Below, piece after piece: positions 7,440 through 31,318 of a stretch of DNA of 64,000 nt. The notes beneath the pieces are model-generated. The model had not been told where the DNA came from. It searched no databases and was given only the letters and a program-made list of their open reading frames with translations. A program made the position numbers and the translations under genes. Source of the stretch: Candidatus Poribacteria bacterium (lineage in GTDB: Bacteria > Poribacteria > WGA-4E > PCPOR2b); contig OZ245030.1 of NCBI GenBank assembly GCA_965223985.1, positions 3,151,720 to 3,215,719 of the forward strand, given 5' to 3'. The first letter of the stretch is position 1; each line of letters begins with the position of its first letter.

Positions 7440-8219
7440 TCAAGGTCTTGTTTTCAGCGACGCCCATGCGGTTGCCAATTTCGCTTCTGGGGAGACAGCG
7501 AGAATACTTTGTATTCCCTGTTCGGCGATTTCTTCAATCTCCTTGACAGATAACGGGCGTGTCCAAAAAGCGACTTCGTCCAGAATGCCATCGAACCGCT
7601 GTTCTTTACCGAATTGCTGCCAGGGCATCCGGGTTCCGAAATACATGGGTCGACCGGTAACTGGCACAGGCCCATCTGGCCCCCCACCAACTTTTTCGCC
7701 GTTAAGATACACTTTACTGTCGCCCGGCTCGTGTGACCATGTCAAGTAAATCCATTTCCCCACCTGACCGAGTCCAGGGGCGAACCCAAAGGTGTTACCT
7801 ATCCCCCAATGGAGGCGTGTGTCATCGAGCAAGAACCATTGAATCCGCGCGCCATCGTTATCGGATTTATCCATCATAGCGCCGCGCCCCCGCTGTTTTG
7901 CCCAGTGCGCAATTGTGAACCCGTCGGGCAATTCATCTATGTCCTCTATGTGTTCGATGATTACAGATGAGTCTTTTTTCGGCGAGAAATCCAGCGCTGT
8001 TCCTTCCATGGCATCATCTGTCCAAGTAGCGCCGTCGATTTCTCCATGATGCTCCCCGATGGAATCTCCAGCCATTTTCCCTTCGCCTTCATCAAAGGTC
8101 CAGAAAGCTACTAGCCCATCTAGAATGTCAGCAGGGGCACTTAGATGAATGACTAGCGAACAAATGGCAATTGCGGTCAAATAAAACATCGGTTTCATCG
8201 TGAATAACCTCCTCATCAA
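7440..8219 (-). CDS. Secreted LamG/concanavalin-like domain protein (paralog 1 of 3)
   Basis: Signal peptide MKPMFYLTAIAICSLVIHLSAPA. Body has the LamG jelly-roll pattern (GLVAFWTFDEG ... ILDEVAFWTRPLSVKEIEEI). C-terminal tail is KLATAWASLKTRP. Confidence 0.7.
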   Translation of the reverse strand: MMRRLFTMKPMFYLTAIAICSLVIHLSAPADILDGLVAFWTFDEGEGKMAGDSIGEHHGEIDGATWTDDAMEGTALDFSPKKDSSVIIEHIEDIDELPDGFTIAHWAKQRGRGAMMDKSDNDGARIQWFLLDDTRLHWGIGNTFGFAPGLGQVGKWIYLTWSHEPGDSKVYLNGEKVGGGPDGPVPVTGRPMYFGTRMPWQQFGKEQRFDGILDEVAFWTRPLSVKEIEEIAEQGIQSILAVSPEAKLATAWASLKTRP

Positions 8220-8236
8220 ATTAGAAGCTCGGTAGA

Positions 8237-9073
8237 CTAAGGACGCTGCGCCTTGAGTTTGCCCCAGGTGATGGCGAGTTTGTTCTTCGGTTCGACTGCG
8301 ACAACCTCGCCCCGCATGACTTGGTTGACTTCATCTTCAGAGAGCGCGCGGTCCCACAGCATCACTTCATCAACGAGGCCGTTAAGGTAAGTCTTAGTGT
8401 CTAGGTTGTTATTTAGCCCTTGACTCATTCCCATGCGAATGGGCTGATCAGGGAAGAGCGCGTAGGGTGCGGCGAGAGTCTGCGGAACTTTACCGACACC
8501 GGCAGCACCGAGCCAAGTTTCGCCCGCGTGAGGCACTTCAACGAGTTCACCGTTAAAATAGGAGCGGAGTTCTTTACCGTCGGCGATTTGCGCCACGTGA
8601 ACCCAAGTTTGCAGATGGGGGTGTAGGGAATGATACCATCCTTCGGTATCTGCAGTACATGCTCCCCAGCCCATCAATTCCGGGTTCCTGTTTGCGAGGC
8701 TTACGATTTCAAACGTAAATCCAGCTGCCCAGCCAACTTGCCTTCCCTTCCAGACAATACCCACGAAATTGCCGGGCTCCCGGAAGAAGGCCCAGGCGGA
8801 GACGCTGAAAGCATTTTCGAGACCGTTCATTGAATCGCTGTGGGGAACTTCGACAAAGGCATCGACTCCGTTGAGATCGACCGCTTTGCCGCTCTGACCG
8901 TCCGAGAACGCCGCGTCACCCCTAAGTATGCCATCGTTACGACCAAGCGCGTCATTTGCGGATTCGTCGTCAAAGTTCCAGACTGAAACCAAGCCATCGG
9001 TAAGCGCGGCTGAAGCGAGGCTCGGCATGACCAAAAAGGCAATGACCATTATGATTGTGAAAAAACGAAACAT
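8237..9073 (-). CDS. Secreted LamG/concanavalin-like domain protein (paralog 2 of 3)
   Basis: ATG at 9073 is preceded by a GGAGG RBS and encodes signal peptide MFRFFTIIMVIAFLVMPSLASA. Body has LVSVWNFDDES ... VDEVMLWDRALSEDEVNQV. C-terminal tail is KLAITWGKLKAQRP. The ORF track extends further upstream. Confidence 0.75.
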   Translation of the reverse strand: MFRFFTIIMVIAFLVMPSLASAALTDGLVSVWNFDDESANDALGRNDGILRGDAAFSDGQSGKAVDLNGVDAFVEVPHSDSMNGLENAFSVSAWAFFREPGNFVGIVWKGRQVGWAAGFTFEIVSLANRNPELMGWGACTADTEGWYHSLHPHLQTWVHVAQIADGKELRSYFNGELVEVPHAGETWLGAAGVGKVPQTLAAPYALFPDQPIRMGMSQGLNNNLDTKTYLNGLVDEVMLWDRALSEDEVNQVMRGEVVAVEPKNKLAITWGKLKAQRP

Positions 9074-9297
9074 TGGAAACCTCCTTTTTTGCGAACTAGG
9101 TTCAATCGCAATGAGAGTCGATACGGTTTCTCGCCAACAATCTGGATTACGATTTCGGCTGAGAATCCGATACATTGAGGACAGATTCTAACATGGTGTT
9201 AGCCAATGGTAATTTAGATGCACAAGCGGAAGCCTATCAAAGCGGAAGTCAGAAATTATGTCAAGCAGTCATTCCTGTATGCCTAATATGCCAAAAC

Positions 9298-10239
9298 TCA
9301 GCGGCTAATCGATAAAGCCGCCTGTTCCCCGGCGTGGTAAGAGCTTCGCACCAGCGGGCCCGACTCAACATGGCGGTATCCCATGTCCATTCCCGCCGCC
9401 TTAAACGCATTGAATTCCTCCGGGGTGTAATACCGTTTAATCGGAAGGTGTCGTGTGGTTGGTGCTAGGTACTGTCCAATGGTCAAGATGTCACAATTGG
9501 CGTGGCGAATATTCTGCATGGTTTGCAATAACTCGGTATCGGTTTCGCCCAAGCCAACCATCAATCCTGATTTGGTGAGGATTGTTTTATCAACCTCTTT
9601 GCTGATGCGCAAGAGGTCTAAGGAGCGTTGATAGTCAGCCTGGGGACGCGCTCGGCGATAGAGGCGCGGTACCGTTTCAGTGTTATGATTGAGCACATCG
9701 GGTTTCGCCTGCACGATTACGGCTAATGCGTCCCAATTGCCTTCGAGGTCTGGGATAAGCACTTCAACGGTGCAATCGGGGTTATTGGCGCGCGCCTCTC
9801 GGATGCAAGCGGCGAAGATACTGGCACCTCCGTCCTCCTGATCGTCACGGTTGACTGAGGTGATGACGACATGCTTAAGTTTCAGATACGCGACTGCCTC
9901 CCCAATCCGGCGGGGTTCATCAAGGTCTACTCCCGTCGGTTTCCCTTTGGTGACCGCGCAAAACATACAGCGACGGGTGCAGACATCCCCCAAAATCATG
10001 AAGGTTGCAGTTCGATTTTCCCAGCATTCACCGATATTTGGACACCGTGCTTCCTCGCACACTGAGTGGAGCTCTAGGCCGCTCATCATCGCCTTGAGAT
10101 CTGCATAGTTTGGTCCCGCTGGAATCCGTGCTCGAATCCAAGGTGGATGGCGCTGTTTGGACGAGTACCGGACGGACGATTTACCTGTCGCACATGCCGA
10201 TTCATCGTCGCTTTCATATAAAGGAAGGGATTGAATCAT
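9298..10239 (-). CDS. lipA: Lipoyl synthase
   Basis: CEEARCPNIGECW plus the radical-SAM motif CTRRCMFCAV and the conserved C-terminal VESGPLVRSSYHA. Confidence 0.9.
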   Translation of the reverse strand: MIQSLPLYESDDESACATGKSSVRYSSKQRHPPWIRARIPAGPNYADLKAMMSGLELHSVCEEARCPNIGECWENRTATFMILGDVCTRRCMFCAVTKGKPTGVDLDEPRRIGEAVAYLKLKHVVITSVNRDDQEDGGASIFAACIREARANNPDCTVEVLIPDLEGNWDALAVIVQAKPDVLNHNTETVPRLYRRARPQADYQRSLDLLRISKEVDKTILTKSGLMVGLGETDTELLQTMQNIRHANCDILTIGQYLAPTTRHLPIKRYYTPEEFNAFKAAGMDMGYRHVESGPLVRSSYHAGEQAALSISR

Positions 10240-10448
10240 TCTGCATCAACCTCAATTATTTGTTGGGATACGTTATTCTAAGGCTTCCAATTGACGCAAG
10301 GAAAATCAGGAAACGCCCATCTAACCTCTGCGCAGCACCCCTTATTACTCCCCTTTACTGAGGTGGAGAGTCCTCGTATGGCGGGGAGGAGGGGCGCTGA
10401 CTGAAATTAAGGGAAAAGGCACCATCGACGCAAGTTGCAGTTTAACGA

Positions 10449-11417
10449 CTATCGTCGGCTTTGTATCCCACTTTTCTTGAGATACCTGAAGAGATCGCTA
10501 TCGGTCGACAAGAAGAGCGTGGTGTTCTCAGTAGTTGTTGTGCGGTAGGTATCCAAGGTCTGGAGAAATGCATAAAACTCAGAATCTCTGCCGTGTGCCT
10601 GCGCATAAATTTGTATGGCTTCGGCATCGGCGTTTCCTTTAAGCTCTTCAGCCTTCTTATAGGCTTCAGACTGAATGCGCTCCAGTTCTTTCTGTTTTTG
10701 ACCGTTGATATTCGCGGCTTCTCCTTCGCCTTCCGATCGATACTTTGCGGCGATTCGCTTCCGTTCGGAAATCATGCGGCCAAAGACTTTCTCTTGGACT
10801 TCCTTTACATAGTTAATCCGCTTAATCCGCACATCAATGAGTTCGATGCCGAATTTATCGGGTAAGCCCTGCTGCGCTTTCTCAAGGATCATTTGCGCAA
10901 CTTTTTCCCTTCCAACCACAATTGACTCTAGAGGTTCAGCAGTACCACCGCCCTCTTCTGCGTCCTGTTCTTCAAGATCCATTTCGATGACACGATTCGA
11001 ATCGCGCACAACTTCAATTAACAGTTGCCCCGTCACCAAATCACGGGCAGCCGAATCGATAATGTCGTCCAGACGGGATTGAGCGGAGTCTTCTGTGCCG
11101 AGGGCTTGGTAAAATGCGAGCGCATCATTGATGCGCCACCGCGCTGTGGTATCCAGCCTGATGAATCTTTTGTCCTTGGTCGTGATCTGGTTCGGTGAGC
11201 CGTCCCATTTGAGGATACGTCTCTGGAAACGGTGGACTTCCTGAATGAATGGGGTTTTCATTTTTAGACCAGCGCGGAAAATGGGTTCACCAATCGGACG
11301 ACCGAATTCAGTAATCACTGCCTGTTCACCTTCTTGGACAATATAGAACATTGATGGGGCGACTACAATTGCAATTACAGCGACTATGATTAGCGGTATC
11401 AAAAGTTTTACATTCAT
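10449..11417 (-). CDS. hflC: HflC (SPFH/band-7 protease modulator)
   Basis: N-terminal TM, SPFH domain (FYIVQEGEQAVITEFGRP...) and coiled-coil C-terminus. It lies immediately downstream of hflK on the same strand. Confidence 0.8.
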   Translation of the reverse strand: MNVKLLIPLIIVAVIAIVVAPSMFYIVQEGEQAVITEFGRPIGEPIFRAGLKMKTPFIQEVHRFQRRILKWDGSPNQITTKDKRFIRLDTTARWRINDALAFYQALGTEDSAQSRLDDIIDSAARDLVTGQLLIEVVRDSNRVIEMDLEEQDAEEGGGTAEPLESIVVGREKVAQMILEKAQQGLPDKFGIELIDVRIKRINYVKEVQEKVFGRMISERKRIAAKYRSEGEGEAANINGQKQKELERIQSEAYKKAEELKGNADAEAIQIYAQAHGRDSEFYAFLQTLDTYRTTTTENTTLFLSTDSDLFRYLKKSGIQSRR

Positions 11418-11500
11418 TGTGAAATTCCTTTCGTGAATTGTGTCGTGTGGCTGAGAATCAAATCGTGAAGATTATTGCGAATTTCAATCTTCTGATTTTC

Positions 11501-12475
11501 TCATTTCCCTGATTGTCCCAGTTGCAGAATGGGAATGGGGCTGTTCGTTTCATCATCAATGATATAAATCTCTTTGACTTTCGGCAGAATCTCGCTCATC
11601 GTTTCGAGGTAGAGTCTGCGTCGGGTCACATTTTTAGCACTTTGATATTCCTGTCGAATCGAGTTGAATCGATCCGCGTCCCCTGTTGCCTCATTCACAC
11701 GTTTCAGGGCATAACCCTCTGCCTCGGAAATCTGTTGTCGTGCGAGCCCGTTGGCTCTGGGAACGGATTCGTTGTAATCACGCAAGGCTTCGTTAATCAA
11801 CCGCTCCTTCTCTTGCTTCGCCTCATTGACTTCATTAAAAGCGGGTTTCACGGTTTCCGGCGGATTCACATCTTGCAAGGTGACGTTTTCAATGTATAAA
11901 CCGGTTTTGTAAAGGTCCAACAACTCTTGTAGATTTTTTTTGACGCCCATTGCGATCTCTTGGCGTCCGACGGTAAGCACCTCTGTGACAGTGCGGTCAC
12001 CGACAACAATGCTCATAACAGCTTCAGAGAGATCGCGCAAGGCTTGTTTCGCGTCACGGATTTCAAACAGGAATTTTTGGGGTTCAGCAATTCGATATTG
12101 AACCACCCATTCGACATCGGCAATATTGAGATCACCCGTTAACAGAACAGATTCGTGCGAATAATCTCGGGAATCATATTGAGTTCGGACGCCTGCTCGA
12201 AGCGTACGAAACCCGAATTCCTCTTTGAAAACTTTCCGCACCCGGACACCGGTTGCTTTTTCAATTCCGAACGGCGCCTTGAAGTGCAGTCCCGGCGGGA
12301 CAGATCTGACGTACTCTCCAAACCGGAGCACGACACCTTCCTCATCGGCTTCAACGGTGTAGAAACTCGTTGCGGCTGCAACGACGGCGATCAAAATAAG
12401 AACGAGCCAAAAAACACGTTTAGCGGTGATGAGCCGCATATACGGCTGCAAATCATCCCACGATTGCTGTTGCAT
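11501..12475 (-). CDS. hflK: HflK (SPFH/band-7 protease modulator)
   Basis: TM segment then SPFH domain (VVLRFGEYVRSVPPGLHFKAPFGIEK...). Sits in the canonical hflK-hflC arrangement. Confidence 0.8.
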   Translation of the reverse strand: MQQQSWDDLQPYMRLITAKRVFWLVLILIAVVAAATSFYTVEADEEGVVLRFGEYVRSVPPGLHFKAPFGIEKATGVRVRKVFKEEFGFRTLRAGVRTQYDSRDYSHESVLLTGDLNIADVEWVVQYRIAEPQKFLFEIRDAKQALRDLSEAVMSIVVGDRTVTEVLTVGRQEIAMGVKKNLQELLDLYKTGLYIENVTLQDVNPPETVKPAFNEVNEAKQEKERLINEALRDYNESVPRANGLARQQISEAEGYALKRVNEATGDADRFNSIRQEYQSAKNVTRRRLYLETMSEILPKVKEIYIIDDETNSPIPILQLGQSGK

Positions 12476-12536: not shown

Positions 12537-14879
12537 CTAAAGCAAAAACAGCGAAATTCCGATATTTGTTCGTTTTTCCGAGCCGCCGACGGGTTCAAGA
12601 AAGCTTTGAATTGCGTAGTCGGAAGCGATTAAGAGCCCCATCTTCTGTCCGAAGACATCTCCCTGCAGCACAAGCTCCAAGAATCCGACGGTGCGGTTAA
12701 AATTATTCTGAGAATCGTTGAGGTCGCGCCACGTGAGAAACTGCGCACCGGCGCTTAATTGCAATTGTGCCGCAACTTGATGGGTTAAGGTCAAGATGTA
12801 GGCATTTCGGATGAAATCGACCGTCGATAGTTTGTCAAACGGGACGGTGTAACTAATTGTCCGGTCGCTCCGGAAAGCGGGTGCGACCGTGAGATCGTCG
12901 CGCACTTTATAGTCGTATCGAATCTGGTTAATCAAGGCGGTATCAATAACGTGCTGCCGACTGTGAAACAGCGCGTCACGCTGATATTTGAATTTACTGA
13001 CGATTGTGAGATTTTCGATGTTCTGGTAATCCACAATCATCGTGAAGATATTGCTCAGATAATTTTGGAGCGCCAAATTGTCCTCAATCTGCTCGCCTGT
13101 GCTGCGAATGACAACGTCATCGGTAATAATGTCGCGCGAGCGACGAAGCGTATGTCGGAACTTGACCGTTCCGAAGTGACGAATCCGATTCGGCGTGTAT
13201 GCAACTATATTATACCATCCTCTTGCACTCTTATGTTCGAGAATCAGATGTTTCGCATAATATCCGGGGATAACAGATAAACTTTCGGTGAATGGCAGAT
13301 CTACCTTAAAATAGGTGTGATGTCCGTAAGAGCCTCTGTCATAATCGTAGCGGTAGTTGGGTTTGTCGTCGTCTTCGAGATTATCCGGCTCGCCGTTGTT
13401 ATTAAAATCGATGGATTCACGATTGAGCCCTAAGCGGAATCTCGGCGGGTCTGCAAAGAAGAGCAGAAAATCGTCATCCCAATCTTTAATGCGATCGCCG
13501 TCGAGATCGTCCTTTGTATTTCCTGAAATCAATATCTCAGGTTCGCGCGAATCTGCGAATGGGTTATCATCGTCGTTGTCGTCCACGAAGTTATCCGCCG
13601 TATAAAAGGGATTAATCCGTGTATATTCGCTGCGCCAAGTCAGTGGCCCAAAGTTTCGATTGACATCAATGAACCATGCGCCGGCTGTTCGCTGTGTGCT
13701 TTGCCCACTCAGAATCGGATACTGCTTCGTCTGTGAATACCATGCACGCTCCGCCTCAATGGAGAAACCGAACAGTGTTGTGTGGAGATCGAAACCCATT
13801 GTCGTTTCATCTGTCAATACCCCGTAGTAAAATCTGTGTACCTGACGGTTCGATTCGTCTTTGACGTTGCCTGGGGCGCTGAGTTCCAATTGAAAGTCGC
13901 GATTGTTCGGTGACAATTCAACGCGATAGTCGTTGGCAATATCGACCTCAAAGCGCACGTTGTTGATGTCCTGTGAGTTGAACAGGAGAAATCGATACGT
14001 GAATGTCCCTTCGCCATCCGCCCTGCGTGACTCATGATCCCGCCGGCTCTTATGAGGTAGGAGCAGAACGCCCGGCGGCTCTCGCCCGCCGACAATCTCA
14101 TGCTCTAGGGCGCCGTCAATGTAGACGCGCACATGGAAAACTTTCGCGCCGCCGGGGTTTTCGGGCGAAGCGTCACTGAAACGGAGAAACAGCTCCGGCG
14201 GCGGATTAGCGATGGTGACCCCTCGAAACGGGTTGGTTGTACGAGTGAGGTCGTAGTTGGTAAAAAACCGATTGACATAGTTGATTCCGAGGCGAGGCAG
14301 AGGTAACGTAAATTCTGGCAACGTCCCCAGTCGGACGCCATGCGCCCCGAGATTCGCCTCCGCTCGGAACCCTGCCATGAACCAATCGGCGGTACTCGTA
14401 ATATCAATGTTTTCGATTGGTGAGGTGCGCTCTCCCAATATCTCAAAGGTGTTGTTGGTCACCCGTCCGATAAACGCTGAAACTCCTCCGTGTGCTTTAG
14501 GAATGGATATATTCCAGCGTGCGGCGTCGAACAGTTCCTTATTCAACGTAAAGCTGGAAAATTTTGTCGGAAAATTGCCGACAGTCAACTGATGACGGAC
14601 GTTCTCGCTGGGGATGTTGAAAGTGAAAAAGTTTCGATTGCTTGTCTTTTTCCGAAATTCCGAATCACGGCGCAGCGTCGAATCGCCTCCTAATACGCCA
14701 AAGGTTGCCTGAATTCTATAGAGCTCTTTTCCGCTCTTATCAAAGACGGGATTGCCCAGCGGATCCACCCGTTGCGCAAGCGCCGAACCCAGAAAGCGGT
14801 CAGAGATTAACAGGTACAAAATCATCAGGTGTAATGCGCAATGGATTAAGCGTGAAGCGTGAAGCGTGAATGCTCTCAT
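12537..14879 (-). CDS. Hypothetical large outer-membrane/secreted protein (about 780 aa) with an acidic Asp-rich segment
   Basis: ATG at 14879 lies 14 nt after an AAGGAG RBS. Signal-like N-terminus MRAFTLHASRLIHCALHLMILYLLISDRFLGSALAQ. Asp-rich calcium-binding-like region (DDNDDDNPFAD...DDLDGDRIKDWDDD). Last gene of the T9SS-cargo / PorV-like cluster. Confidence 0.5.
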   Translation of the reverse strand: MRAFTLHASRLIHCALHLMILYLLISDRFLGSALAQRVDPLGNPVFDKSGKELYRIQATFGVLGGDSTLRRDSEFRKKTSNRNFFTFNIPSENVRHQLTVGNFPTKFSSFTLNKELFDAARWNISIPKAHGGVSAFIGRVTNNTFEILGERTSPIENIDITSTADWFMAGFRAEANLGAHGVRLGTLPEFTLPLPRLGINYVNRFFTNYDLTRTTNPFRGVTIANPPPELFLRFSDASPENPGGAKVFHVRVYIDGALEHEIVGGREPPGVLLLPHKSRRDHESRRADGEGTFTYRFLLFNSQDINNVRFEVDIANDYRVELSPNNRDFQLELSAPGNVKDESNRQVHRFYYGVLTDETTMGFDLHTTLFGFSIEAERAWYSQTKQYPILSGQSTQRTAGAWFIDVNRNFGPLTWRSEYTRINPFYTADNFVDDNDDDNPFADSREPEILISGNTKDDLDGDRIKDWDDDFLLFFADPPRFRLGLNRESIDFNNNGEPDNLEDDDKPNYRYDYDRGSYGHHTYFKVDLPFTESLSVIPGYYAKHLILEHKSARGWYNIVAYTPNRIRHFGTVKFRHTLRRSRDIITDDVVIRSTGEQIEDNLALQNYLSNIFTMIVDYQNIENLTIVSKFKYQRDALFHSRQHVIDTALINQIRYDYKVRDDLTVAPAFRSDRTISYTVPFDKLSTVDFIRNAYILTLTHQVAAQLQLSAGAQFLTWRDLNDSQNNFNRTVGFLELVLQGDVFGQKMGLLIASDYAIQSFLEPVGGSEKRTNIGISLFLL

Positions 14880-14948
14880 CCTTATTTTCCGCTCCTTCTT
14901 TATATGTCCCAACCACGCATTCCACCCGACGTCCACCGCTCGGTTATA

Positions 14949-15905
14949 TCATAAATCATACACGATGCTGACTCGATGGCTGCCGTAGGTGTCTACAATG
15001 CCACCGATCGGAAAAGCGGAGCCGTAATCCATTCGGACGCTATTGCTCAAGCGATATCCTCCGCCGAGTGTCAGATTTGTGCCCCATGCGAGATTTTCCA
15101 ACCGAAACCCGCCGCGCAGCAGTACCTTCCCATCATGAAATTGATGTTCAATCCCAATCTTGACATCAGTTTGGTTACCGATAAAAACGAGGTCCATCCC
15201 CCATGTAGACCGCTCCCCCAAAATGCCGATGCCGAGCGTCACCTGCAGCGGCAACTCCTCCGTTATCTTCGAGGATTTCGAAGCGATGTTGGGGGTATTG
15301 ATATTCTGGACCGACAGCGCGATCGGAATATTCGCAGACGGCCGAAAAACCACGCCAGCGTCTAGGCTAAACCGACTGGAACCTGGCAAGTCCTCTACAA
15401 TCCCACCGTCTGTCCCAATTGTGGGTGCTGTATCCCAATTCAGCAGCTTGAACCCCGTTCCGACTGACAAGCGGCGTTCCTCTTCAGTTCCAAATGCGAA
15501 CCCTTTGCTAAACCCAACGACCAAGTAATTCTCCGAATACAGTTGGCTGACGTTCAACCGCTTCCAGAGCAACCCGAGCGAGCTTCTGAGAGGACCTGGG
15601 TTGGTATAGCTAATCAGGTGCTGTGCGATTGAAGTCTCGTCGGTCAAGCCGAGGTGAAGTCTTGCCATTGTTGCGGACAACTGCCGCGGGGTCGAAAGAT
15701 TTGAGATTGACGCCGGATTAACGAGCAGACCGTCGGATTCATTCGCAATAGCTGCGAACGCGCCTCCCATAGCGTATGCACGTGCGCCTGCGAACTGATC
15801 GTCGAATGCCGCGTGCGTCCGAGGAGAAAAACTGACCGCCCCCAAGCCAAATAAGAAGAGTAGGAGTGTGAATGGGTGGGCTGGCGCGAAGGAGTCAGTC
15901 TTCAT
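14949..15905 (-). CDS. FadL-family outer-membrane beta-barrel protein, PorV/PorQ-like (T9SS-associated)
   Basis: Signal peptide, then the FadL/PorV N-terminal hatch motif GARAYAMGGAFAAIANESDGLLVNPA, then beta-rich alternating sequence. Its start overlaps the stop of the upstream CTD-cargo gene by 4 nt. Confidence 0.6.
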   Translation of the reverse strand: MKTDSFAPAHPFTLLLFLFGLGAVSFSPRTHAAFDDQFAGARAYAMGGAFAAIANESDGLLVNPASISNLSTPRQLSATMARLHLGLTDETSIAQHLISYTNPGPLRSSLGLLWKRLNVSQLYSENYLVVGFSKGFAFGTEEERRLSVGTGFKLLNWDTAPTIGTDGGIVEDLPGSSRFSLDAGVVFRPSANIPIALSVQNINTPNIASKSSKITEELPLQVTLGIGILGERSTWGMDLVFIGNQTDVKIGIEHQFHDGKVLLRGGFRLENLAWGTNLTLGGGYRLSNSVRMDYGSAFPIGGIVDTYGSHRVSIVYDL

Positions 15906-17833
15906 TTTCCCACCACGATCACTCCGTTTCGGACGTCAGTCTGGGCATCGGATTGGAGTTGAATCTGATAGATATACGGTCCAATATCTACAATCCGCCC
16001 CGATCCGTCCCGACCGTCCCATTCGACACTCATGGCGTTCGAATTCATGACGGTCCGATTCATCAACGTTCTCACCAGTCTGTTGTTGAGATTAAAGATT
16101 TCAACGATGAGTTCGGTCTGTCCGAGCTGTGAAGTGCCGGGGTTAATTATTGTGAGTCGTGTTACGTCTGCGATACCGTTTCCGTCGGGTGAAAACGGGT
16201 TAAAATTCCATGTCGTCTGAATTTTAGATGTAACACCTTGGAACAACGCAAATTGGGCAAAATAGTTGAGTTCTAGACTAACGGTCTGGCGATCTAGGTC
16301 GATATCTCCACCTGCTAATTGCCACTCCTTGGCGAGTACGTCCCATGCGAAAATTCTAAGGTCGGCTTCTCGGCGTATATTCGCCGCGAGCAGATCGGAC
16401 GCGGTGTAACTCAATTCTAGAAGCGCCGGACGCTCAAGCAGAAACCGATCAGCTGCGACAAGCGGCACAAGCTTTGAGTCGGAAGCGTCAAAAAATTCGA
16501 CCTCGTTGATTTGAATGTTATTTTCCTGTTTGCTCTCCGTAATTTCGAGTCGGACATACCGGGCAGACGGTTGAGAAGGCAGCTCGATCGCGGTGGTTTT
16601 ATCGTCAAATGGCGAATATTCAAAGAGCTCAATGAAGCTCGTGCCATCATTGGACGCGAGTATTTTCGCCCTTTGCGGTCCAAAAGAACCGTTCTCGGCG
16701 ACATTTGAATGGACGACAATCCGGCTCAGCGCGTGAACCTCGCCGAGATCGACAGTAAGCGCGATAGGAAACGGGACTAACCCTGCGACCCATGTCGAAG
16801 GGGAATCCAGAATGCCGTCAACTGCGAGCGTCGGCGGCTGATCGCGTAGGAAGCTAGTCGCCTCCGCCGCGAATATGCCCTGCCTCAGCGTTTCAAATCG
16901 GTACACGACAACGGGAGCTGTGCCTTCAACAATCTGCGCGTTCCCTGAATAGGACAGAGAATCCAACTGCTCCCGCGGAACTGAATAGAACTGTAGTTTT
17001 TTAATTTTCTCATCGAAGGCGTCAACCGGAACCACTACCGTCGCGCGATCGCCATCGCTCAAGGTGTAATATCCCGCATCGGCGGCATCCGGCCGCAATT
17101 CTGAAATATAAAACAGTGTAATTGACGCCCGATCCGCAGTTTCAAACCGAACCTCGTCTGGCGGCGAGAGTGCGCTGGCGAACAGCGAGAGTCGATTCTC
17201 TCCCGCCTTGAGCAGCACCTGAATCGAAAACGGCGCCCGATTCTGATCCGTGAGATCTAACAGGATTGAAATGGACTCGATGCGGGCTTGTATAATCCGA
17301 TCGTTTATATCTAGGAATTCAACGGATTCGACGGCAATTCTATCCAGTTGCCAGCCTTCAAGCATCACAATCTGAACGAACCGTGCAGAAACGTCTATTG
17401 AAAAATCAACCACAGTCTGATTGAAGATTTTATCTACGCTGGAGGGTACATTTAGGCGTTGCCCATCGGAGAAGTCCGCGCCATCGTGCGCGAAATCCAT
17501 CTGCACCGTTCTCGGTCCCAACGGGAACTCAAGGTCAGGGACGGCACGAATTAAAGCCGCTTTGAGCTGGTGTGAACTTCCTAGGTCAAGAACAATAGCG
17601 TGGAGGGAATGCGCCAACTGCCCCAAATCAGGAACACCGGCGGGCGTGTTGGTCGAGACTACAACTTTTGTTGGAAATGAGGATTCAACAATTCCCTCAA
17701 TCGGTAACACCTGATTGTTTGTTGTAAAATCTGTCCGTGGACGTACAATCGACAGGTCAATTACGGCAAACAATCCCTTGGGGCTAATAACGAAAAACGT
17801 GATGGCGAGCGATATTACGATACGGAATAGCAT
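15902..17833 (-). CDS. Secreted discoidin-domain protein with T9SS-type C-terminal sorting domain
   Basis: Signal peptide MLFRIVISLAITFFVISPKGLFA. F5/8-type C domain (...RIVVHSNVAENGSFGPQRAKILASNDGTSFIELFEY...RYVRLEI). The C-terminal ~90 aa match the FlgD-Ig-like T9SS CTD (NPFSPDGNG...IFNLNNRLVRTL...WDGRDGSGRIVDIGPYIYQIQ...VVGK). Confidence 0.75.
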   Translation of the reverse strand: MLFRIVISLAITFFVISPKGLFAVIDLSIVRPRTDFTTNNQVLPIEGIVESSFPTKVVVSTNTPAGVPDLGQLAHSLHAIVLDLGSSHQLKAALIRAVPDLEFPLGPRTVQMDFAHDGADFSDGQRLNVPSSVDKIFNQTVVDFSIDVSARFVQIVMLEGWQLDRIAVESVEFLDINDRIIQARIESISILLDLTDQNRAPFSIQVLLKAGENRLSLFASALSPPDEVRFETADRASITLFYISELRPDAADAGYYTLSDGDRATVVVPVDAFDEKIKKLQFYSVPREQLDSLSYSGNAQIVEGTAPVVVYRFETLRQGIFAAEATSFLRDQPPTLAVDGILDSPSTWVAGLVPFPIALTVDLGEVHALSRIVVHSNVAENGSFGPQRAKILASNDGTSFIELFEYSPFDDKTTAIELPSQPSARYVRLEITESKQENNIQINEVEFFDASDSKLVPLVAADRFLLERPALLELSYTASDLLAANIRREADLRIFAWDVLAKEWQLAGGDIDLDRQTVSLELNYFAQFALFQGVTSKIQTTWNFNPFSPDGNGIADVTRLTIINPGTSQLGQTELIVEIFNLNNRLVRTLMNRTVMNSNAMSVEWDGRDGSGRIVDIGPYIYQIQLQSDAQTDVRNGVIVVGK

Positions 17834-22048: not shown

Positions 22049-23995
22049 ATGAATCAAACGAGCCCCATTGAAAACCCCAAGCGAGGCGGTGTCCGCCTTA
22101 GAGTTGTTGTCATCGGTCTAATATTGATGGCGCTCAATGCCTATTGGGTCGCAATCAATGATATCATCGTGGGACCGTTGCACAACTACATGTCGCTGTT
22201 CAGCAACGCGGTCTTTACGCTGTTTGCTCTGATTCTGCTGAACCTGATTGTCAAGAGACTGCTGCCGCGCGCATCGCTCAACAGATCCGACCTGTTCGTT
22301 ATCTATGTCATGGTCGTCACGGTGACAACCGTATCGGGACATCCGAGCATGAGCCATGTGGTCGGAATTCTCGCGCACCCGTACTGGTTCGCCACGCCGG
22401 AGAATGACTGGCGAAATCTGTTCTGGGGATATATCCCCGACTGGTTCACCACCCGCGACACAAACGCGCTCAGCGGTTTTTTCCTCGGCGAGACCTCCTT
22501 CTTCAGCCCGCAGTACGTCATACCTTGGCTGGCGCCGATTCTCTATTGGTCCGCGTTTATGTTCGTGCTCTACTTCGTTCTCATCTGTATCAACGTTATT
22601 CTGAGAAAGCAGTTCACCGAGCACGAACGGCTCACCTACCCTATCACGTGGATGCCCCTAGAGATGGGGCGAGACATCTCCGGCTTCCTGAGGAACAGGT
22701 TAATGTGGGCGGGCTTTGGGATTGCGGCGGGCATCAGTCTGCTGAATGGCTTGCATACCTTATACCCTTTCGTCCCCGCTGTGCCCGTGTGGTGGCAACG
22801 GGTCAGCTTCGTGGAAAAACCGTGGAGCTACGCGGGCGGCGTGCTGGTCTCCTTCCAGCCGTTTGTGATTGGGCTCTCATTTTTCATGCCGTTGGATCTG
22901 GCGTTTTCCGCTTGGTTCTTCTACATGCTACAGCTTCTGATACGGATACTGCTGGGCGCGGGGATGGGTATACGCAACCCGTACTTCGATGAACAGGCAC
23001 AGGGGGGTTGGATCGGGTTGGGGATTCTTGCGCTCTGGGTCGGTCGCCGACATCTCAAGCGCGTGTTCGTCCACACGTTCAGCGGCAAGGGCGGAATTGA
23101 CGACACGAGCGAGCCGATGCGGTATCGGACCGCAATCTTGGGAATTGTCGCAGGGCTGCTGTTCTTGCTTGGGTTTGCGTACAAAGCCGGGCTTGATGCA
23201 TGGGTGCTGATCGTGTTCTTGGCGTTATACTGTGCGATTGCGATCGGGGTGGCAAAACTCAGGGCGAGCTTGGGGGTGTCGATCCATCACATCATCTGGG
23301 TAGACCCGCAACGCACGATGGTGACTGCCTTCGGAACACGCGCCTTCGGAGCGCGGAACCTGACGGTGCTGACCTTTCTTTTTTGGCTGAATCGAGAGTT
23401 GGTCGCGCATCCGATGCCGAACCAGCTCGAAGCCTTCCGAATCGCCGAACAGACGGGTACGAACTATCGAAGAGTGTTGTGGGCGATGCTGATAACGCTA
23501 ATCGTCGGGATACCGGTGACCTTTGTGATATACCTCAGCCTTACGTATCACCACGGAGCCGGTAATTCCGCGTCACACATCGTGGGGATGGGGACGGACT
23601 ACTTCACACGTCGTCTCCAACCGTGGTTGAGCAATCCGCTCGAACCGGATTACCTGACAATGAGCATGATTGGTCTCGGGTTTGGGATAATGACCGTTCT
23701 GCTAGTCATGAAGATGCGGTTTCTGTGGTGGCAATTCCATCCGGTGGGGTACGTCATGGGAATTAGCCCGTCGGAGATGAGTTATATCTGGTGCCCGATG
23801 CTTGTTAGTTGGTTTCTCAAGTTCATCGTCTTACGGTATGGCGGATTGAAGGGGTATCGACGCGCCATACCATTTTTTGCGGGCTTGGTGCTCGGAGATT
23901 ACACGATGGGCTGCATTTGGAGCATCATTAGTGCGACCTTCAACGTCGTCACGTATAACATGGGGTGGCACGGACGTCCTAACATGATTCCCTAA
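22049..23995 (+). CDS. Polytopic membrane protein of unknown function (about 13 TM; paralog 1 of 3)
   Basis: 648 aa, highly hydrophobic, with conserved blocks NAYWVAINDIIVGPLHNYMSLFSNAVFTLF, HPYWFATPENDWRNLFW and ERLTYPITWMPLEM shared with ORFs at 60913 and 63626. Confidence 0.75.
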   Translation: MNQTSPIENPKRGGVRLRVVVIGLILMALNAYWVAINDIIVGPLHNYMSLFSNAVFTLFALILLNLIVKRLLPRASLNRSDLFVIYVMVVTVTTVSGHPSMSHVVGILAHPYWFATPENDWRNLFWGYIPDWFTTRDTNALSGFFLGETSFFSPQYVIPWLAPILYWSAFMFVLYFVLICINVILRKQFTEHERLTYPITWMPLEMGRDISGFLRNRLMWAGFGIAAGISLLNGLHTLYPFVPAVPVWWQRVSFVEKPWSYAGGVLVSFQPFVIGLSFFMPLDLAFSAWFFYMLQLLIRILLGAGMGIRNPYFDEQAQGGWIGLGILALWVGRRHLKRVFVHTFSGKGGIDDTSEPMRYRTAILGIVAGLLFLLGFAYKAGLDAWVLIVFLALYCAIAIGVAKLRASLGVSIHHIIWVDPQRTMVTAFGTRAFGARNLTVLTFLFWLNRELVAHPMPNQLEAFRIAEQTGTNYRRVLWAMLITLIVGIPVTFVIYLSLTYHHGAGNSASHIVGMGTDYFTRRLQPWLSNPLEPDYLTMSMIGLGFGIMTVLLVMKMRFLWWQFHPVGYVMGISPSEMSYIWCPMLVSWFLKFIVLRYGGLKGYRRAIPFFAGLVLGDYTMGCIWSIISATFNVVTYNMGWHGRPNMIP

Positions 23996-26809: not shown

Positions 26810-26819
26810 AATAATACCC

Positions 26820-27015
26820 CCATGCCCCCTTGGTAAGGGGGGATGCTAGTAGAGTTTTCCCTCTTGATAAGGGGGAGGCGCTAATGGAGTTCTCCCTCTC
26901 GTTAAGGGTGGAGGAAAATAGGATTCGCGCCTTACTAAGGGGGCGCCGCCCAAATTTCTCCGGCTTTCTAAGGGGCACCCCGCACATTCTTCCTCTTGCC
27001 AAGGGGGAGTTAGAG
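26820..27015. repeat. Tandem array of about six ~35-bp units, each containing a short G/C-clamped hairpin (CCyTC-TTGNTAA-GGGGG)
   Basis: ccccttggtaagggggg (26826), ccctcttgataagggggagg (26859), ccctctcgttaagggtggagg (26894), gccttactaagggggcgcc (26929), ctttctaaggggcaccc (26964), cctcttgccaagggggag (26992). Single copies of the same hairpin occur at 46188-46215 and 34340-34380. Confidence 0.5.
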
Positions 27016-27059
27016 GGAGTCGAATTTTGGCGGCTATTGAAGAAGGGAGGACGTAAACA

Positions 27060-27776
27060 ATGACAAAGACAGCAGTTATTGCCGGTGTCGGCGCCGGTTT
27101 GGGCGCATCGCTGGCGAAGAAATTCGCGCAGGAAGGTTGCCGTGTGGGGCTTCTCGCGCGTTCGCCCAATTACATCAATACGCTGGCGGCGGAGCTGCGC
27201 CAAGCGGGCGCCATCAGTCTCGCTGTGCCCACGGACATCACCGACGCGCAGCAAATTGCGGGCAGTTTCTCGGCGGTGCGTGAGACGTTGGGACCGGTCG
27301 ATATTTTGGTCAACCACGCGGGAAATGCGGCGTGGGGCGATTTTTCTGAGTTGACGCCCGAGGCGTTTGAGCATTCTTGGCGAGTCTGCACGTTAGGGGC
27401 GTTCCTGTGCTCTAAGGAAGCGGTTCCCGATATGATAGGTCAGGGCGGCGGGACCATCCTCTTCACCGGCGCGACGTCTGCGATTCGCGGTCGAGCGGGG
27501 GCAATCGCGTTTAGCAGCGCCAAGTTTGCCGTGCGCGGTCTGGCGTGGGCGCTCGCACGCGAGGTCGGACGCAAAGGGATTCATGTCGCGCATATCATTG
27601 TCGATGGTATCATTGACACGCCGGATGTGCGTGCCCGATACCAACTGGACGACGATGAGCCGACCCTCGATCCGGACGAGATTGCCGAGACGTATTGGAG
27701 TCTCGTGCAGCAACCGCGCAGTTCATGGACCTTTGAGTTGGATGTCCGTCCGCATGATGAGGAGTTCTTTACGTAG
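27060..27776 (+). CDS. Short-chain dehydrogenase/reductase (SDR) family oxidoreductase
   Basis: N-terminal Rossmann motif TAVIAGVGAGLGASLAKKF...VGLLAR and NHAGNAAWG. Length is typical of classical SDRs. Confidence 0.8.
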   Translation: MTKTAVIAGVGAGLGASLAKKFAQEGCRVGLLARSPNYINTLAAELRQAGAISLAVPTDITDAQQIAGSFSAVRETLGPVDILVNHAGNAAWGDFSELTPEAFEHSWRVCTLGAFLCSKEAVPDMIGQGGGTILFTGATSAIRGRAGAIAFSSAKFAVRGLAWALAREVGRKGIHVAHIIVDGIIDTPDVRARYQLDDDEPTLDPDEIAETYWSLVQQPRSSWTFELDVRPHDEEFFT

Positions 27777-27848
27777 CTCAACCCAACCTACGTTGCTGCC
27801 CACCGTTTTTGTGGATGATTTTTCCGGTCTTATGCTACAATTTTGTAT

Positions 27849-28199
27849 ATGGGTTTACAACAGATAAAAATATATCGTACGCCGGAAAATCGTGAGCCCT
27901 TTACGGATTGGTTAAAGTCAATACGAAATCAGGAAACACGAAAACGAATTCTAGTCCGACTTGATCGGCTTCGGCATAGTAATTTTGGCGATTGCAAATC
28001 CGTTGGAGATAATGTCTTTGAACTCCGTCTCCAATTTGGTTCTGGTTATCGTATCTACTTTGGAAGAATAGCAGAAAACATTGTACTGTTACTATGCGGT
28101 GGTGACAAATCCTCGCAGAATAAAGACATTGAAAGTGCAAAATCCTATTGGCAAGAATACAAGGAGGCGAACCATGAGACAATTTCGGGATTATCATGA
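27849..28199 (+). CDS. Type II toxin, RelE/ParE superfamily (HigB-like addiction-module killer protein)
   Basis: Matches the killer-protein family pattern ...FTDWL...RIL.RLDRL...GDCKSVGDNVFELRLQFGSGYRIYFGR..NIVLLLCGGDKSSQNKDIESAK. Overlaps the downstream antidote gene. Confidence 0.7.
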   Translation: MGLQQIKIYRTPENREPFTDWLKSIRNQETRKRILVRLDRLRHSNFGDCKSVGDNVFELRLQFGSGYRIYFGRIAENIVLLLCGGDKSSQNKDIESAKSYWQEYKEANHETISGLS

Positions 28200-28422
28200 T
28201 TACCTCATTGAAGAGGAATTGTCAAATCCGAAGGAGGCATTGCTTTATCTCGAAGTCGCGTTTGAAGAATACCTTAAGGATGGTGACGCCACAGCGTTTA
28301 TGTTAGCACTTCGCAACATTGATGAAGCACAAGGCACCAACCTAAGCAACACTTTGAAGCTATCCGCGAAAGAGCCCCGTAAAATTGCGAAGCTGTTTCA
28401 ACGTGCAGCTTCCCCGCTCTAG
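28174..28422 (+). CDS. Type II antitoxin (HigA-like addiction-module antidote protein)
   Basis: ATG at 28174 lies 6 nt after an AAGGAGG RBS and overlaps the toxin's 3' end. LSNPKEALLYLEVAFEEYLKDGDATAFMLALRNIDEAQG matches the antidote family consensus. Confidence 0.6.
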   Translation: MRQFRDYHDYLIEEELSNPKEALLYLEVAFEEYLKDGDATAFMLALRNIDEAQGTNLSNTLKLSAKEPRKIAKLFQRAASPL

Positions 28423-28430
28423 ATCTAGTT

Positions 28431-28505
28431 TTCGTAGGTTGGGTTTCGGAGAAAACTATCGCCCTCGTTATTCACTCGGTTGATCTCTACCCAACCTACA
28501 AGAGC
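28431..28505. repeat. REP-like element cluster (GTAGGTTGGGT / ACTATCGCC...GTTGATC family)
   Basis: ttcgtaggttgggtttcg...aaactatcgccctcgttattcactcggttgatctctacccaacctacaag; the same words recur more than 50 times in the window. Confidence 0.6.
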
Positions 28506-28510
28506 TACGT

Positions 28511-29023
28511 TCAGAGCCGCCCGAACGGGAATGTGCCGGGCATTACATCTAAGCCTCGGTAGTGATTCGGTTTAATCATCGACGGGAGTCTCAGGTCCGG
28601 CAATTTAATCTCGGTGAGCCGATGGTTCTGTTCGGGTGTGAGCGCCGCTTTAATTTCATTGAGGAGCACGCCAATCTCCTTGAGATAGCCGTTGCGTTGT
28701 GTAATGAACTCCCTAATCTTTGTTCTGAGCGTGTTTCGTGCGCGCGCCGACTGTCGAGACATTCTCCGATTACCTTCGTACGGGCTCAATTGGTCCATCC
28801 GTGCTTCGCTGCGATAGCCCTGGTAGTGCGACTCTAGCACATCCTTGTCAAATTCGTAGTCTTCGACGATGTCCCGAATGATGGAGATTTTGGAGGTAAT
28901 CGTCTCCTGCTGTTCCGGAGAGAGGTTCAACGCGGCTGTGGATGTCGGGATGTCGATTAACTTTACCCCGCCGCAGGCGGAGGTTAATGCGACGTAGAAG
29001 AGGATGATGATGATCCGTATCAT
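28511..29023 (-). CDS. Hypothetical secreted/lipoprotein (170 aa)
   Basis: Signal peptide with a possible lipobox (MIRIIIILFYVALTSACGG); basic, helical protein with no recognised domain. Confidence 0.5.
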   Translation of the reverse strand: MIRIIIILFYVALTSACGGVKLIDIPTSTAALNLSPEQQETITSKISIIRDIVEDYEFDKDVLESHYQGYRSEARMDQLSPYEGNRRMSRQSARARNTLRTKIREFITQRNGYLKEIGVLLNEIKAALTPEQNHRLTEIKLPDLRLPSMIKPNHYRGLDVMPGTFPFGRL

Positions 29024-29434
29024 ATTCTTTCCTTAGTTGTTGAAAGAGACCTACACAAAACGTCGCTTGACCGCCGCTGTTGTGCTGGTGTTCGGCATTT
29101 TTTTGATTGCCAATTTTTAATTATTCCTTGCGGTTCGATTAGGTGAATTGGTTAAATAACGTTATTTGCCGTAGACCCGACTGCGCCGTTGTTGCAGGCT
29201 ACACTTACGGATAAACCCGCACAATCTGAATGAAGTTTCAATAAATATTCCGGTAATTCTACGAAAGATACGGTTCATTCAAGAAATCCATAATCAGCGA
29301 AATCTGTGTAATCCATATAATCCGTGATTCAGACAATTTCGCAGAAACCCGCATTCTGCGCAAGCCTATAGAGGCTTGCGGGACAATGCGAAGCAAACGG
29401 ACGCAGCAGCCCAAGCTTACATAATTAAAAAACC

Positions 29435-30409
29435 TCAACCGAAGGAGACACCTAATTTGACGCTCCGTTCAGGATGATTGTCCATCTCTATATAGGCTTC
29501 GACTGAATCTTCAAACGGCACCACCGGATCAACGACACCTTCACAATCAAATCTACCTTCAACAAGCCACTTCCAGCAGGTATCAACGATACGTCCGAAA
29601 TGCCAGCGCGGATGATCGCGGTTCGGATCGCTGTTGGCACGGGCAAAGATGATGTTCGGGATGTTGACATGCGCGACAGCACCGAGGTCAAGCCCGCCCG
29701 TACACGCTTTTGCGCGTCCAGCGTAGACGATTGTTCCTTCAAAAGCGACACTGCGAATTGCATCATCAAGGGCTTCGTACACTGCACTTGTTTCTACAGC
29801 CACATCAACGCCAAGCCCGCCAGTCGCTTCTTTGAGCACCTCGCCGGTATTAGAGGCAGTGGGATCGATAACAAGCTCCGCCCCCGTTTTTTCAGCGACC
29901 TTCCGCCGTCTTTCGAGCGGGTCTACGGCAGCGACGAAGTCAGCCCCTGCGATCCGTGCCATTTGCACCGTCATCAACCCAATGGCACCAAGCCCAAAGA
30001 CAGCCACCCGCTCACCAACGCGTACCTTTCCATCGCGAATTGCGGACATTGCAAAGTGGGCTGGATCATAGCAGACCGCTTCCTTCCACGTCATACTCTC
30101 AGGCATCCTGAGGACACCAGCCGCACGCCATGTATGCGTCTCCTTGAGGTGCCCGTGACTGGCGACGCGTTCCCCAATCGCGAAACCCTCAACCTCTTCC
30201 CCGATTTCAATAACTTTTCCGACGCACATATTTCCAAGTCCCATCGGAAAAGTTTCGCCGTCATATCCGTAATACGCTGTCAGTTCTGTACCACGCTTGG
30301 GCGCGCCGAATTCGACTTGAACCCGGACACTATCCGCGGGGACGGGACCATCTGCGTACTCTCTCAAGACGGGCTGCCGAAGGGCAACCGCGACCAATTC
30401 TCTTGGCAT
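29435..30409 (-). CDS. Zinc-binding medium-chain dehydrogenase/reductase (alcohol dehydrogenase family)
   Basis: GroES-like N-domain with GLGNMCVGKVIEIGEEV and the Rossmann motif VAVFGLGAIGLMTVQMARIAGA. Confidence 0.8.
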   Translation of the reverse strand: MPRELVAVALRQPVLREYADGPVPADSVRVQVEFGAPKRGTELTAYYGYDGETFPMGLGNMCVGKVIEIGEEVEGFAIGERVASHGHLKETHTWRAAGVLRMPESMTWKEAVCYDPAHFAMSAIRDGKVRVGERVAVFGLGAIGLMTVQMARIAGADFVAAVDPLERRRKVAEKTGAELVIDPTASNTGEVLKEATGGLGVDVAVETSAVYEALDDAIRSVAFEGTIVYAGRAKACTGGLDLGAVAHVNIPNIIFARANSDPNRDHPRWHFGRIVDTCWKWLVEGRFDCEGVVDPVVPFEDSVEAYIEMDNHPERSVKLGVSFG

Positions 30410-30430
30410 CTTTTTCTCCTTAAAGTAGTA

Positions 30431-30512
30431 GGTATACTACAAAAGCTACAGAAGACTATCGCCTTCGCTATCCGCTCAGTTGATCGCTCAGTTGATCGGT
30501 CGCTTGATTCCT
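30431..30512. repeat. REP-like element cluster
   Basis: aagactatcgccttcgctatccgctcagttgatcgctcagttgatcggtcgcttgattcctcgctatc. Confidence 0.55.
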
Positions 30513-30514
30513 CG

Positions 30515-31318
30515 CTATCTTTTAGCTTTGAGGTTGCCCCACGTGGTGGTGAGTTTTCCGTGCGGTTGAACGGCGAGAAATCCTCTCAAACCGCCGTCGA
30601 AGTGGGCTTCAACCTCCTCTTCGCTCAAGGCGCGCTTAACGATGAGGACTTCGTCGATCATACCGTTGAAAAAGAAGGGACCTTCTGACCAGCCGATGTT
30701 TAGCGCGTGGTCAATCTCTTCAGGGATGTTTACCTTGTCATCAACATCTCCGAACGGCTTACCGTCCAGATAATAGGTGTATTTTCTGCCTTCCTTAACA
30801 AGAAGCATCTGATACCACTGCTTCAAATCCGGATCCCACGGGTCGGAGTCGATCCAAGCGACGCCTGCGCCGCCGGCGGTATTGATGTGGAAGTCGATCC
30901 CGTTGCCGGAGTACCACCAAATCCATTTGTTTGTGGGACCGCCGCCCTCATCGTGTCCGAGCAGGGTAAAGCCCGAAGAACCACGGTTCCCCTTCGGCGG
31001 ATCTTCTTCGAAGTAAAGCCATAGTCCGATGGTGAAGTCGGTTTTGTGCAGGCTGAGGCTGTCGTCTTTCTCAATTTCGACTTGGTTCGTTCCATCGAGC
31101 CGAACCGCTTGCCCGAATTTTCCCTTTTCTCGTTTCGCCTTCTGTTCCAGTATGCCGTCGTTACCGTGCGGGGACACGTCCTTGGCGACTAGCCCCTTTT
31201 CTTCGTCAAACGAGATGGCGAGTACGACATCCTTGTCCACTTCGAGCGCCGCCGTATCTCGAAGTGCGAACGCGAGCGTCAAAGCGAAGATTAATGCGAT
31301 GGAAATCGTGTATTTCAT
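30515..31318 (-). CDS. Secreted LamG/concanavalin-like domain protein (paralog 3 of 3)
   Basis: ATG at 31318 with an AGGAG RBS and signal peptide MKYTISIALIFALTLAFALRDTAA. Body has VVLAISFDEEKG...IDEVLIVKRALSEEEVEAH. C-terminal tail KLTTTWGNLKAKR is shared with the 7440 and 8237 paralogs. Confidence 0.7.
   Translation of the reverse strand: MKYTISIALIFALTLAFALRDTAALEVDKDVVLAISFDEEKGLVAKDVSPHGNDGILEQKAKREKGKFGQAVRLDGTNQVEIEKDDSLSLHKTDFTIGLWLYFEEDPPKGNRGSSGFTLLGHDEGGGPTNKWIWWYSGNGIDFHINTAGGAGVAWIDSDPWDPDLKQWYQMLLVKEGRKYTYYLDGKPFGDVDDKVNIPEEIDHALNIGWSEGPFFFNGMIDEVLIVKRALSEEEVEAHFDGGLRGFLAVQPHGKLTTTWGNLKAKR

Follow-up and report, generated by a model that had tools for sequence, protein, structure and literature searches.

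Three genes on the minus strand of a 64-kb window of Candidatus Poribacteria DNA (contig OZ245030.1; the window is the whole 64,000-nt stretch analysed here) encode small secreted LamG proteins that end in nearly the same residues. The question raised by this locus is whether the shared ending is the last structural element of a common fold, a translated piece of repetitive DNA, or a sorting or anchoring tag, as an earlier note on this DNA had proposed. Poribacteria are dominant, uncultivated sponge symbionts, and the reading that we favour, at a probability of about one half on the sequence evidence, is that the tail serves as a C-terminal targeting tag, portable and lineage-specific, for envelope sorting or docking.

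Reading of the open reading frames (ORFs) confirmed the genes and exact tail endings given in the earlier note: gene 1 (7440..8219, minus strand, 259 aa), gene 2 (8237..9073, minus strand, 278 aa), which lies 17 nt upstream of gene 1, and gene 3 (30515..31318, minus strand, 267 aa). The longest ORFs of genes 2 and 3 reach 9175 and 31447, respectively; the starts at 9073 and 31318 yield classical signal peptides, and all three proteins display classical n-h-c signal regions with AxA-like sites. The assignment to the LamG fold also held, with Pfam Laminin_G_3 (PF13385) scores of 58.1, 58.8 and 67.2 bits against a gathering cut-off of 27.6 (E = 1.4e-15 over residues 85-228 of gene 1, 8.8e-16 for gene 2 and 2.4e-18 over residues 76-236 of gene 3). 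By Pfam and by fold the window proteins are ordinary stand-alone Laminin_G_3/ConA-like lectins. What the family model does not contain is a helix-plus-tag extension of about 30 residues, past profile position 150 of 151, and the Pfam match stops about 30 residues short of the C-terminus in all three proteins. Their pairwise identity is 26-30% overall, and 8 of the last ~18 columns are invariant, giving the ending AV.P..KL...W..LK. The tails of genes 1-3 read KLATAWASLKTRP, KLAITWGKLKAQRP and KLTTTWGNLKAKR, and the tags, taken by direct reading, are AVSPEAKLATAWASLKTRP in gene 1 (7443..7499, minus strand; 19 aa up to the stop codon), AVEPKNKLAITWGKLKAQRP in gene 2 (8240..8299, minus strand) and AVQPHGKLTTTWGNLKAKR in gene 3 (30518..30574, minus strand), the first two also being matched by the tail profile described below. 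The tail is absent from every other ORF in the window. An ortholog of gene 3 is present in the poribacterial chromosome OZ240245.1 (locus L094), a chromosome to which the window is 64-73% identical at the nucleotide level over three genes.

The ending is larger and more widespread than the window alone suggests. One genome per species (185,579 species) was searched with a degenerate DNA pattern encoding KL.TTW[GA].[LI]K, which matched at least 120 stretches; in all 134 pattern matches listed the motif is followed in the same frame by a stop codon, 1-12 residues on (1-6 residues in 131 of them), so that no match can be attributed to chance. The 13 conserved residues reported at first proved to be part of a tag of about 19 residues (median 19) found across Poribacteria, with the full consensus [AP]-V-[ED]-[PA]-x-[GD]-K-L-[ATS]-T-T-W-[GA]-x-[LI]-K, after which come 1-6 residues and the stop. 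In 132 distinct poribacterial tails, V occupies position -5 in 128 cases, though it lies outside the search pattern, as do the likewise conserved [AP] at -6, [ED] at -4, [PA] at -3 and [GD] at -1. Family members reach 33-56 bits with a profile built from the tail alone (25 columns), scores that stay significant in a search space of 5.8 billion sequences. The residues that follow LK are Arg-rich; the last residue is R, K or Q in 78 of 134 tails and F, W or Y in 19, and a median of 25% of the tail residues are charged (132 tails).

The same set of 132 tails shows at which level the conservation is maintained. Information content is 0.02-0.22 bits at the third codon position for Leu, Thr, Thr, Gly and Leu/Ile, there is no conservation past the stop codon, and within the window the Leu codons differ among the tail copies (e.g., TTG vs CTC). 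With synonymous positions unconstrained and the sequence beyond the stop not conserved, a DNA-level or REP (repetitive extragenic palindromic) element is ruled out as the source of the tail, and selection acts on the tail peptide, not on the DNA. Conservation within single families agrees in detail. Among 21 homologs of gene 3 (25-86% identity; all of 197-272 aa save one outlier of 424 aa), 20 end in (A)V.P.GKL[ST]TTWG.[LI]K plus 2-5 variable residues. Of 120 DUF4960-type orthologs listed, 110 fit the relaxed motif, seven of the remaining ten are full length with one I or M substitution in the motif and three are truncated gene calls; each full-length member of this listed set (64-100% identity) has the tag or a single-substitution variant.

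The proteins that bear the tail are otherwise diverse. An exhaustive HMMER search with the tail profile against 1.84 billion cluster representatives (50% identity, E <= 1e-3) returned 348 clusters, with the match at the extreme C-terminus in nearly all of the 150 listed. Pfam domains on the carriers include Laminin_G_3, Kelch, DUF4960, esterase, PD40, HAF repeat, CBM_4_9, CBM9_1, 3-keto-disaccharide hydrolase/DUF1080, F5/8 type C and a giant He_PIG+LTD adhesin, several carriers have no Pfam match, and the enrichment beyond the paralog family that the earlier note had called for is seen as a tail on at least ten unrelated domain types. Among short gene calls (77 aa or less, a biased set), hits of the tail-only profile lay behind Kelch, DUF1080-like, Ig-like and unassignable sequence. 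The cores of the carriers fall into 26 unrelated BLAST clusters, LamG accounting for 67 of the 115 complete ORFs (58%), and the carriers are small, with a median length of 259 aa and a 10th-90th percentile range of 215-277 (115 complete ORFs); most are single-domain carbohydrate-binding proteins. A signal-peptide-like N-terminus was scored in 129 of 139 tail ORFs (93%) against 123 of 312 background ORFs, by one lenient heuristic applied to both sets alike (odds ratio ~20, p = 2e-29), which bears out the predicted enrichment on secreted proteins, and a lipobox was found in 3 of the 115 complete tail ORFs. The tail is, in short, a portable tag on many unrelated small exported proteins with no other anchor.

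One large carrier stands apart. In locus L063 (OZ241845.1, 3-4175), a protein of more than 1391 aa combines He_PIG Ig repeats with three Lamin Tail Domain (LTD) stretches, and the tag comes after its terminal Ig-like module; the tag is therefore not strictly confined to small proteins. Matches to the motif away from the C-terminus comprised ACP repeats, a helical repeat of a tape-measure-like protein, a read-through call and two short gene calls, one of which has two tag-like copies and the other of which contains repeats; none of these pointed to a partner.

Structure prediction places the tail outside the folded domain in both carriers modelled, which have unrelated folds. The AlphaFold2 model of gene 3 (mean pLDDT, the predicted local distance difference test score, 83; core ~90) has a ConA-like lectin jelly roll as its core (Foldseek probability 1.00), with clostridial neurotoxin binding domains, AbnA domain 4 and the trans-sialidase lectin domain as Foldseek relatives. 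In this model the last strand of the jelly roll ends at about residue 227, a confident helix spans residues 233-250, and the tail at residues 254-267 has pLDDT < 50. For the DUF4960-type alpha/beta carrier P0154, modelled from a 61-sequence alignment (mean pLDDT 81.6), the core finishes with a helix at residues 243-261 and the tail at residues 268-284 again has pLDDT < 50; in both models the tail is drawn as a low-confidence helix. A search of PDB sequences with the tail profile gave nothing meaningful and no solved structure containing the tag. The earlier note had named two outcomes that would speak against a tag, namely a tail buried as the final beta-strand and a lack of enrichment outside the paralogs, and neither occurred.

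The distribution of the tag follows the lineage closely. Among the matches listed, the label Poribacteria applies to 112 of 120 loci; of the others, six are metagenome-assembled genomes (MAGs) that have no label and two are short contigs assigned to bins of other phyla. The named members of the protein clusters are either labelled Candidatus Poribacteria or derive from an assembly of the sponge Geodia barretti. These matches strongly suggest that the tag is absent from phyla beyond Poribacteria. Most of the source genomes are sponge symbionts. As to density, the 64-kb window contains 3 tails, and 157 tails fit the relaxed motif in 911 kb of loci, all of them chosen for having one.

Known sorting tags were discovered through families whose homology is limited to the C-terminus and which have many copies per lineage (PMC3237569), and the comparison with these systems is informative. 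Like the sortase, exosortase and rhombosortase tags (LPXTG, PEP-CTERM, GlyGly-CTERM, PGF-CTERM, MYXO-CTERM), the poribacterial tag is found at the extreme C-terminus of carriers with N-terminal signal peptides, is lineage-restricted, joins many carriers with no homology outside the tag, and has a short Pro-containing motif, V-E/D-P. Sortase-type tags are, however, defined by a signature motif, a transmembrane helix and a basic cluster (PMC3237569), and here the transmembrane helix is missing (the best 15-residue Kyte-Doolittle mean in the last 35 aa stays below 1.6 throughout the 132 tails), and those basic residues that occur form no separate cluster behind a hydrophobic segment. With E values of up to 10 allowed, the three tail peptides matched no NCBIfam/TIGRFAM family.

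The C-terminal domain (CTD) of type IX secretion systems (T9SS; TIGR04183/PF18962 Por_Secre_tail, FlgD_ig type) is likewise a C-terminal signal on diverse Sec-exported cargo, and it occurs in the same genome. It is, however, a beta-sandwich of 70-100 aa, whereas the tag has ~19 aa and is unstructured in the models, and T9SS CTDs here have ...MVILK or ...MALLR as their final residues, unlike the tag. The claim that the three LamG proteins lack such a domain was correct: none has a CTD match in Pfam, whereas two giant proteins of the window carry Por_Secre_tail/FlgD_ig CTDs. No protein with both the tag and a T9SS-type CTD was found, and the five CTD-like ORFs in the sample range from 168 to 2402 aa and are for the most part larger, against a median of about 260 aa for tag carriers. 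The two giants (38894-46102, 2402 aa; 46470-55571, 3033 aa) are secreted proteins with Ig-like, PKD, BslA-like and Invasin_D3 domains, the first of them containing a 27-nt in-frame repeat in 5 copies (44309-44450). T9SS-type CTDs have been described in Poribacteria together with no detectable Por machinery or structural genes (Kamke et al. 2014; PMC3909097).

The functional analogy that we favour is the dockerin-cohesin pair, in which a portable C-terminal module on carbohydrate-active or -binding proteins attaches them to a common scaffold. A dockerin is a duplicated F-hand calcium-binding module of ~70 aa, unlike the ~19-aa tag; scans of the tail proteins gave no Pfam match to dockerin or cohesin, and no cohesin-type scaffold for the tag was identified. 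Cargo-loading peptides of encapsulins and encapsulation peptides of bacterial microcompartments (BMCs) resemble the tag as short conserved terminal peptides on unrelated small cargo, and the low-confidence helix in which AlphaFold2 models the tail is a further likeness. Their cargo is cytosolic, whereas 93% of tag carriers are signal-peptide-like, and the tag cargo consists of lectin or carbohydrate-binding module (CBM) domains rather than typical compartment enzymes. Poribacteria do encode BMC shell proteins (PMC3909097), and none appeared among the recurrent neighbour families of tail genes, although no search aimed at shell genes was made.

Other candidate identities were rejected. Type 1 secretion exports in one step and without an N-terminal signal peptide, and the presence of signal peptides on the carriers contradicts this reading as it does the BMC and encapsulin ones. 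An outer-membrane-protein beta-signal was ruled out by the terminal aromatic residue being found in only 19 of 134 tails and by the carriers being soluble globular domains, not beta-barrels. The TafC family fimbrial protein model (NF052521) scored 17-37 bits against a cut-off of 410, matching through the shared LamG-like region alone. WxL, a Firmicute domain of ~160 aa, and SecM/TnaC-like arrest peptides, which are not appended to dozens of exported families, were set aside on these descriptions.

In the mechanism that we propose for a targeting tag, Sec export and cleavage of the signal peptide would come first and would leave the tail exposed. A single, shared envelope factor of Poribacteria (possibly a receptor, a translocon or a processing enzyme) would then bind it through a protein-peptide contact that depends on sequence, with the tail probably forming a short hairpin or strand. 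This factor would localise the cargo, most likely by surface display or docking of the lectin-like modules or by export across the outer membrane, in a many-to-one relation between tag and machinery such as that of known C-terminal sorting systems. Recognition is probably by a specific protein and not by lipid, because nearly every position is constrained, on both faces of a strand or helix, and display, docking or passage of the outer membrane is likely because stand-alone carbohydrate-binding modules would be of little use if freely diffusing. That one envelope machine reads the non-hydrophobic peptide of ~19 residues on dozens of small Sec-exported lectin-like proteins and then exports or anchors them, as a phylum-specific sorting or surface-display system with an architecture unlike sortase, exosortase, rhombosortase or T9SS, is a tentative proposal that we consider plausible and somewhat short of probable. 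The idea of a sorting or anchoring tag in place of a final strand thus finds support: portability and the association with export were observed, and from these we infer sorting.

Several points weigh against such a targeting role. The tag is devoid of every architectural hallmark of characterised sorting signals, and the low-confidence helix drawn by AlphaFold2 in both models leaves the hairpin or strand mode of binding unsupported by any model. Stand-alone periplasmic binding proteins would need no surface anchoring. The restriction to the lineage rests on at least 120 loci among the matches listed and is not proven. No partner gene emerged either: after clustering of 3,267 ORFs from 120 8-kb loci plus the window, no neighbour family was present in more than 15 of the 120 loci, and the recurrent neighbours of tail genes were only generic expanded families (PQQ/PD40 propellers, FG-GAP/ASPIC, TPR, WD40, ECF sigma, SUMF1). 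A sortase-like gene was not found in the 64-kb window, and the search for a cognate sortase, rhombosortase or other processing enzyme, suggested by the earlier note, gave no candidate in the window or beside the tail genes of the 120 8-kb loci.

Two groups of neighbouring genes deserve description. Polytopic membrane proteins of the DUF6785+DUF6784 type (Pfam E 1e-147) are encoded by two full genes in the window (22049-23995 and 60913-62847, both on the plus strand) and one partial gene (~63710-64000). This family, which is not mentioned in the searched literature, is found near tail genes in loci L094, L071, L077, L096, L101, L031 and L123, often together with a GFO/IDH/MocA oxidoreductase (5745-6860 in the window), and the proximity could be either chance in expanded families or a functional link. 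In addition, an operon-like envelope trio on the minus strand (12537-17833) encodes proteins of 799, 318 and 643 aa. The 799-aa member (12537-14936) has a weak match to the SlpA_C beta-barrel, the 318-aa member (14949-15905) is TraF_2-like and a possible outer-membrane barrel, and the 643-aa member has an F5/8 type C domain.

A protein partner might be dispensable if the tail were a short amphipathic helix that has Lys/Arg flanks and presents L2, W6 and L9 on the same face. Such a helix would tether the carriers as peripheral proteins to the inner membrane (outer face) or the outer membrane (inner face), much as C-terminal helices tether PBP5 and PBP6 to the membrane. The helix in both AlphaFold2 models and the absence of a linked partner gene are consistent with this, as are the Arg-rich residues past LK and the occurrence of a near-identical KIATTWGNLK within a helical repeat of a phage tape-measure-like protein. 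We nevertheless regard it as unlikely: lipid binders tolerate wide variation, yet K, L, T, T, W, G, L/I, K and the upstream [AP]V[ED][PA] are nearly invariant, Thr-Thr-Thr and Gly are poor helix formers, and the putative helix would have about three turns only and is modelled with pLDDT < 50.

The conservation of both faces of the putative strand could also be explained by assembly in place of sorting. Tails on separate cargo proteins would then join in a foldon-like hairpin oligomer, or donate a strand to the incomplete fold of a scaffold, giving multivalent, cellulosome-like lectin assemblies, an arrangement from which the cargo, being mostly stand-alone carbohydrate-binding modules, would gain avidity. 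The resemblance of AV.P.GKL to the strand-turn-strand of designed propellers is weak evidence in the same direction. No cohesin-like or incomplete-fold partner was identified, and we think self-assembly or strand donation improbable as an explanation; it overlaps with the docking form of the targeting tag, from which it is inseparable with the computational tools used.

A recipient outside the bacterium is a more doubtful idea. Recognition of the tag by a sponge receptor, whether for recognition of the symbiont, evasion of phagocytosis or uptake of lectin-like effectors, would fit the predominance of sponge symbionts among the source genomes, the named homologs from the Geodia barretti assembly and the eukaryote-like adhesion domains on the carriers (LamG, Kelch, discoidin, LTD). 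The tag is, however, also found in MAGs whose names alone suggest deep water or sediment (OC6_3000m, KW1-S08, Arabian9), it is conserved on enzyme-like carriers too (esterase, DUF4960-type), and a route across the outer membrane would be required first. Finally, the reading of the tail as the structural element that closes the fold in a single LamG paralog family, or as a translated DNA repeat or recombination element, for which the 58% share of LamG and the commonness of dispersed REP-like repeats in this genome, one abutting gene 3, might be invoked, is refuted by the diversity of domains, the codon analysis (with codons differing even between the window copies) and the position of the tail outside the fold in the gene 3 and P0154 models, and retains a negligible probability.

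The elements downstream of the three genes are not confined to tail genes. The statement in the earlier note that each gene is followed by a REP element or a hairpin held for two of them: a hairpin with a 14-bp stem lies downstream of gene 1 (approximately 7345..7385, minus strand; z = -3.1), probably marking the transcript end and not belonging to the tag, and a REP-like element (30452..30517, repeat family D9) directly follows the stop of gene 3, in a region with no significant fold. It did not hold for gene 2, on whose 3' side gene 1 begins after 17 nt. The element after gene 3 is one dispersed copy, not specific to tail genes, of a REP-like family with cores CTACCCAACCTACAAAGACTATCGC and GCTCAGTTGATC that has many intergenic, often composite copies (e.g., 28438-28510, 30452-30517, 32151-32304, 34694-34766, 59108-59493, 60632-60884 and 63519-63614). 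Copies at 32151-32304 lie inside an AstE/AspA-like succinylglutamate desuccinylase that appears split into ORFs 31461-31931 and 32080-32622 and may be a disrupted gene. A tandem array of ~16 copies of the 35-bp unit ACTATCGCCTAACATCGGTGTGAAGAACTACAAAG (62962-63531, 93% matching), directly after a DUF6785 gene, is related to the dispersed element. A further ~4 kb of nested tandem or complex repeats (34416-38346), with units of 179, 394 and 414 bp that are 95-98% identical, contains 35531-36334 as its only long ORF.

The tag has no Pfam or NCBIfam model, and neither the searched literature on Poribacteria with LamG, CTERM or sorting nor a search with the peptide string, which gave degenerate DNA primers only, contained a description of it; for Poribacteria, Kamke et al. 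(2014) described T9SS-type CTDs alone. It belongs to the C-terminal protein tags and may mark a new sorting system. One short profile suffices to extract from any poribacterial genome the coherent set of secreted lectin-like proteins that the tag defines, and L[AT]TTWG.LK provides a diagnostic tryptic peptide for metaproteomics. Phylogenetic profiling is the approach behind the finding of exosortase and rhombosortase, and the tag supplies such a profile for seeking its cognate machinery. If it is indeed a sorting signal, it would represent a class of C-terminal tag without a membrane-spanning segment or a folded CTD.

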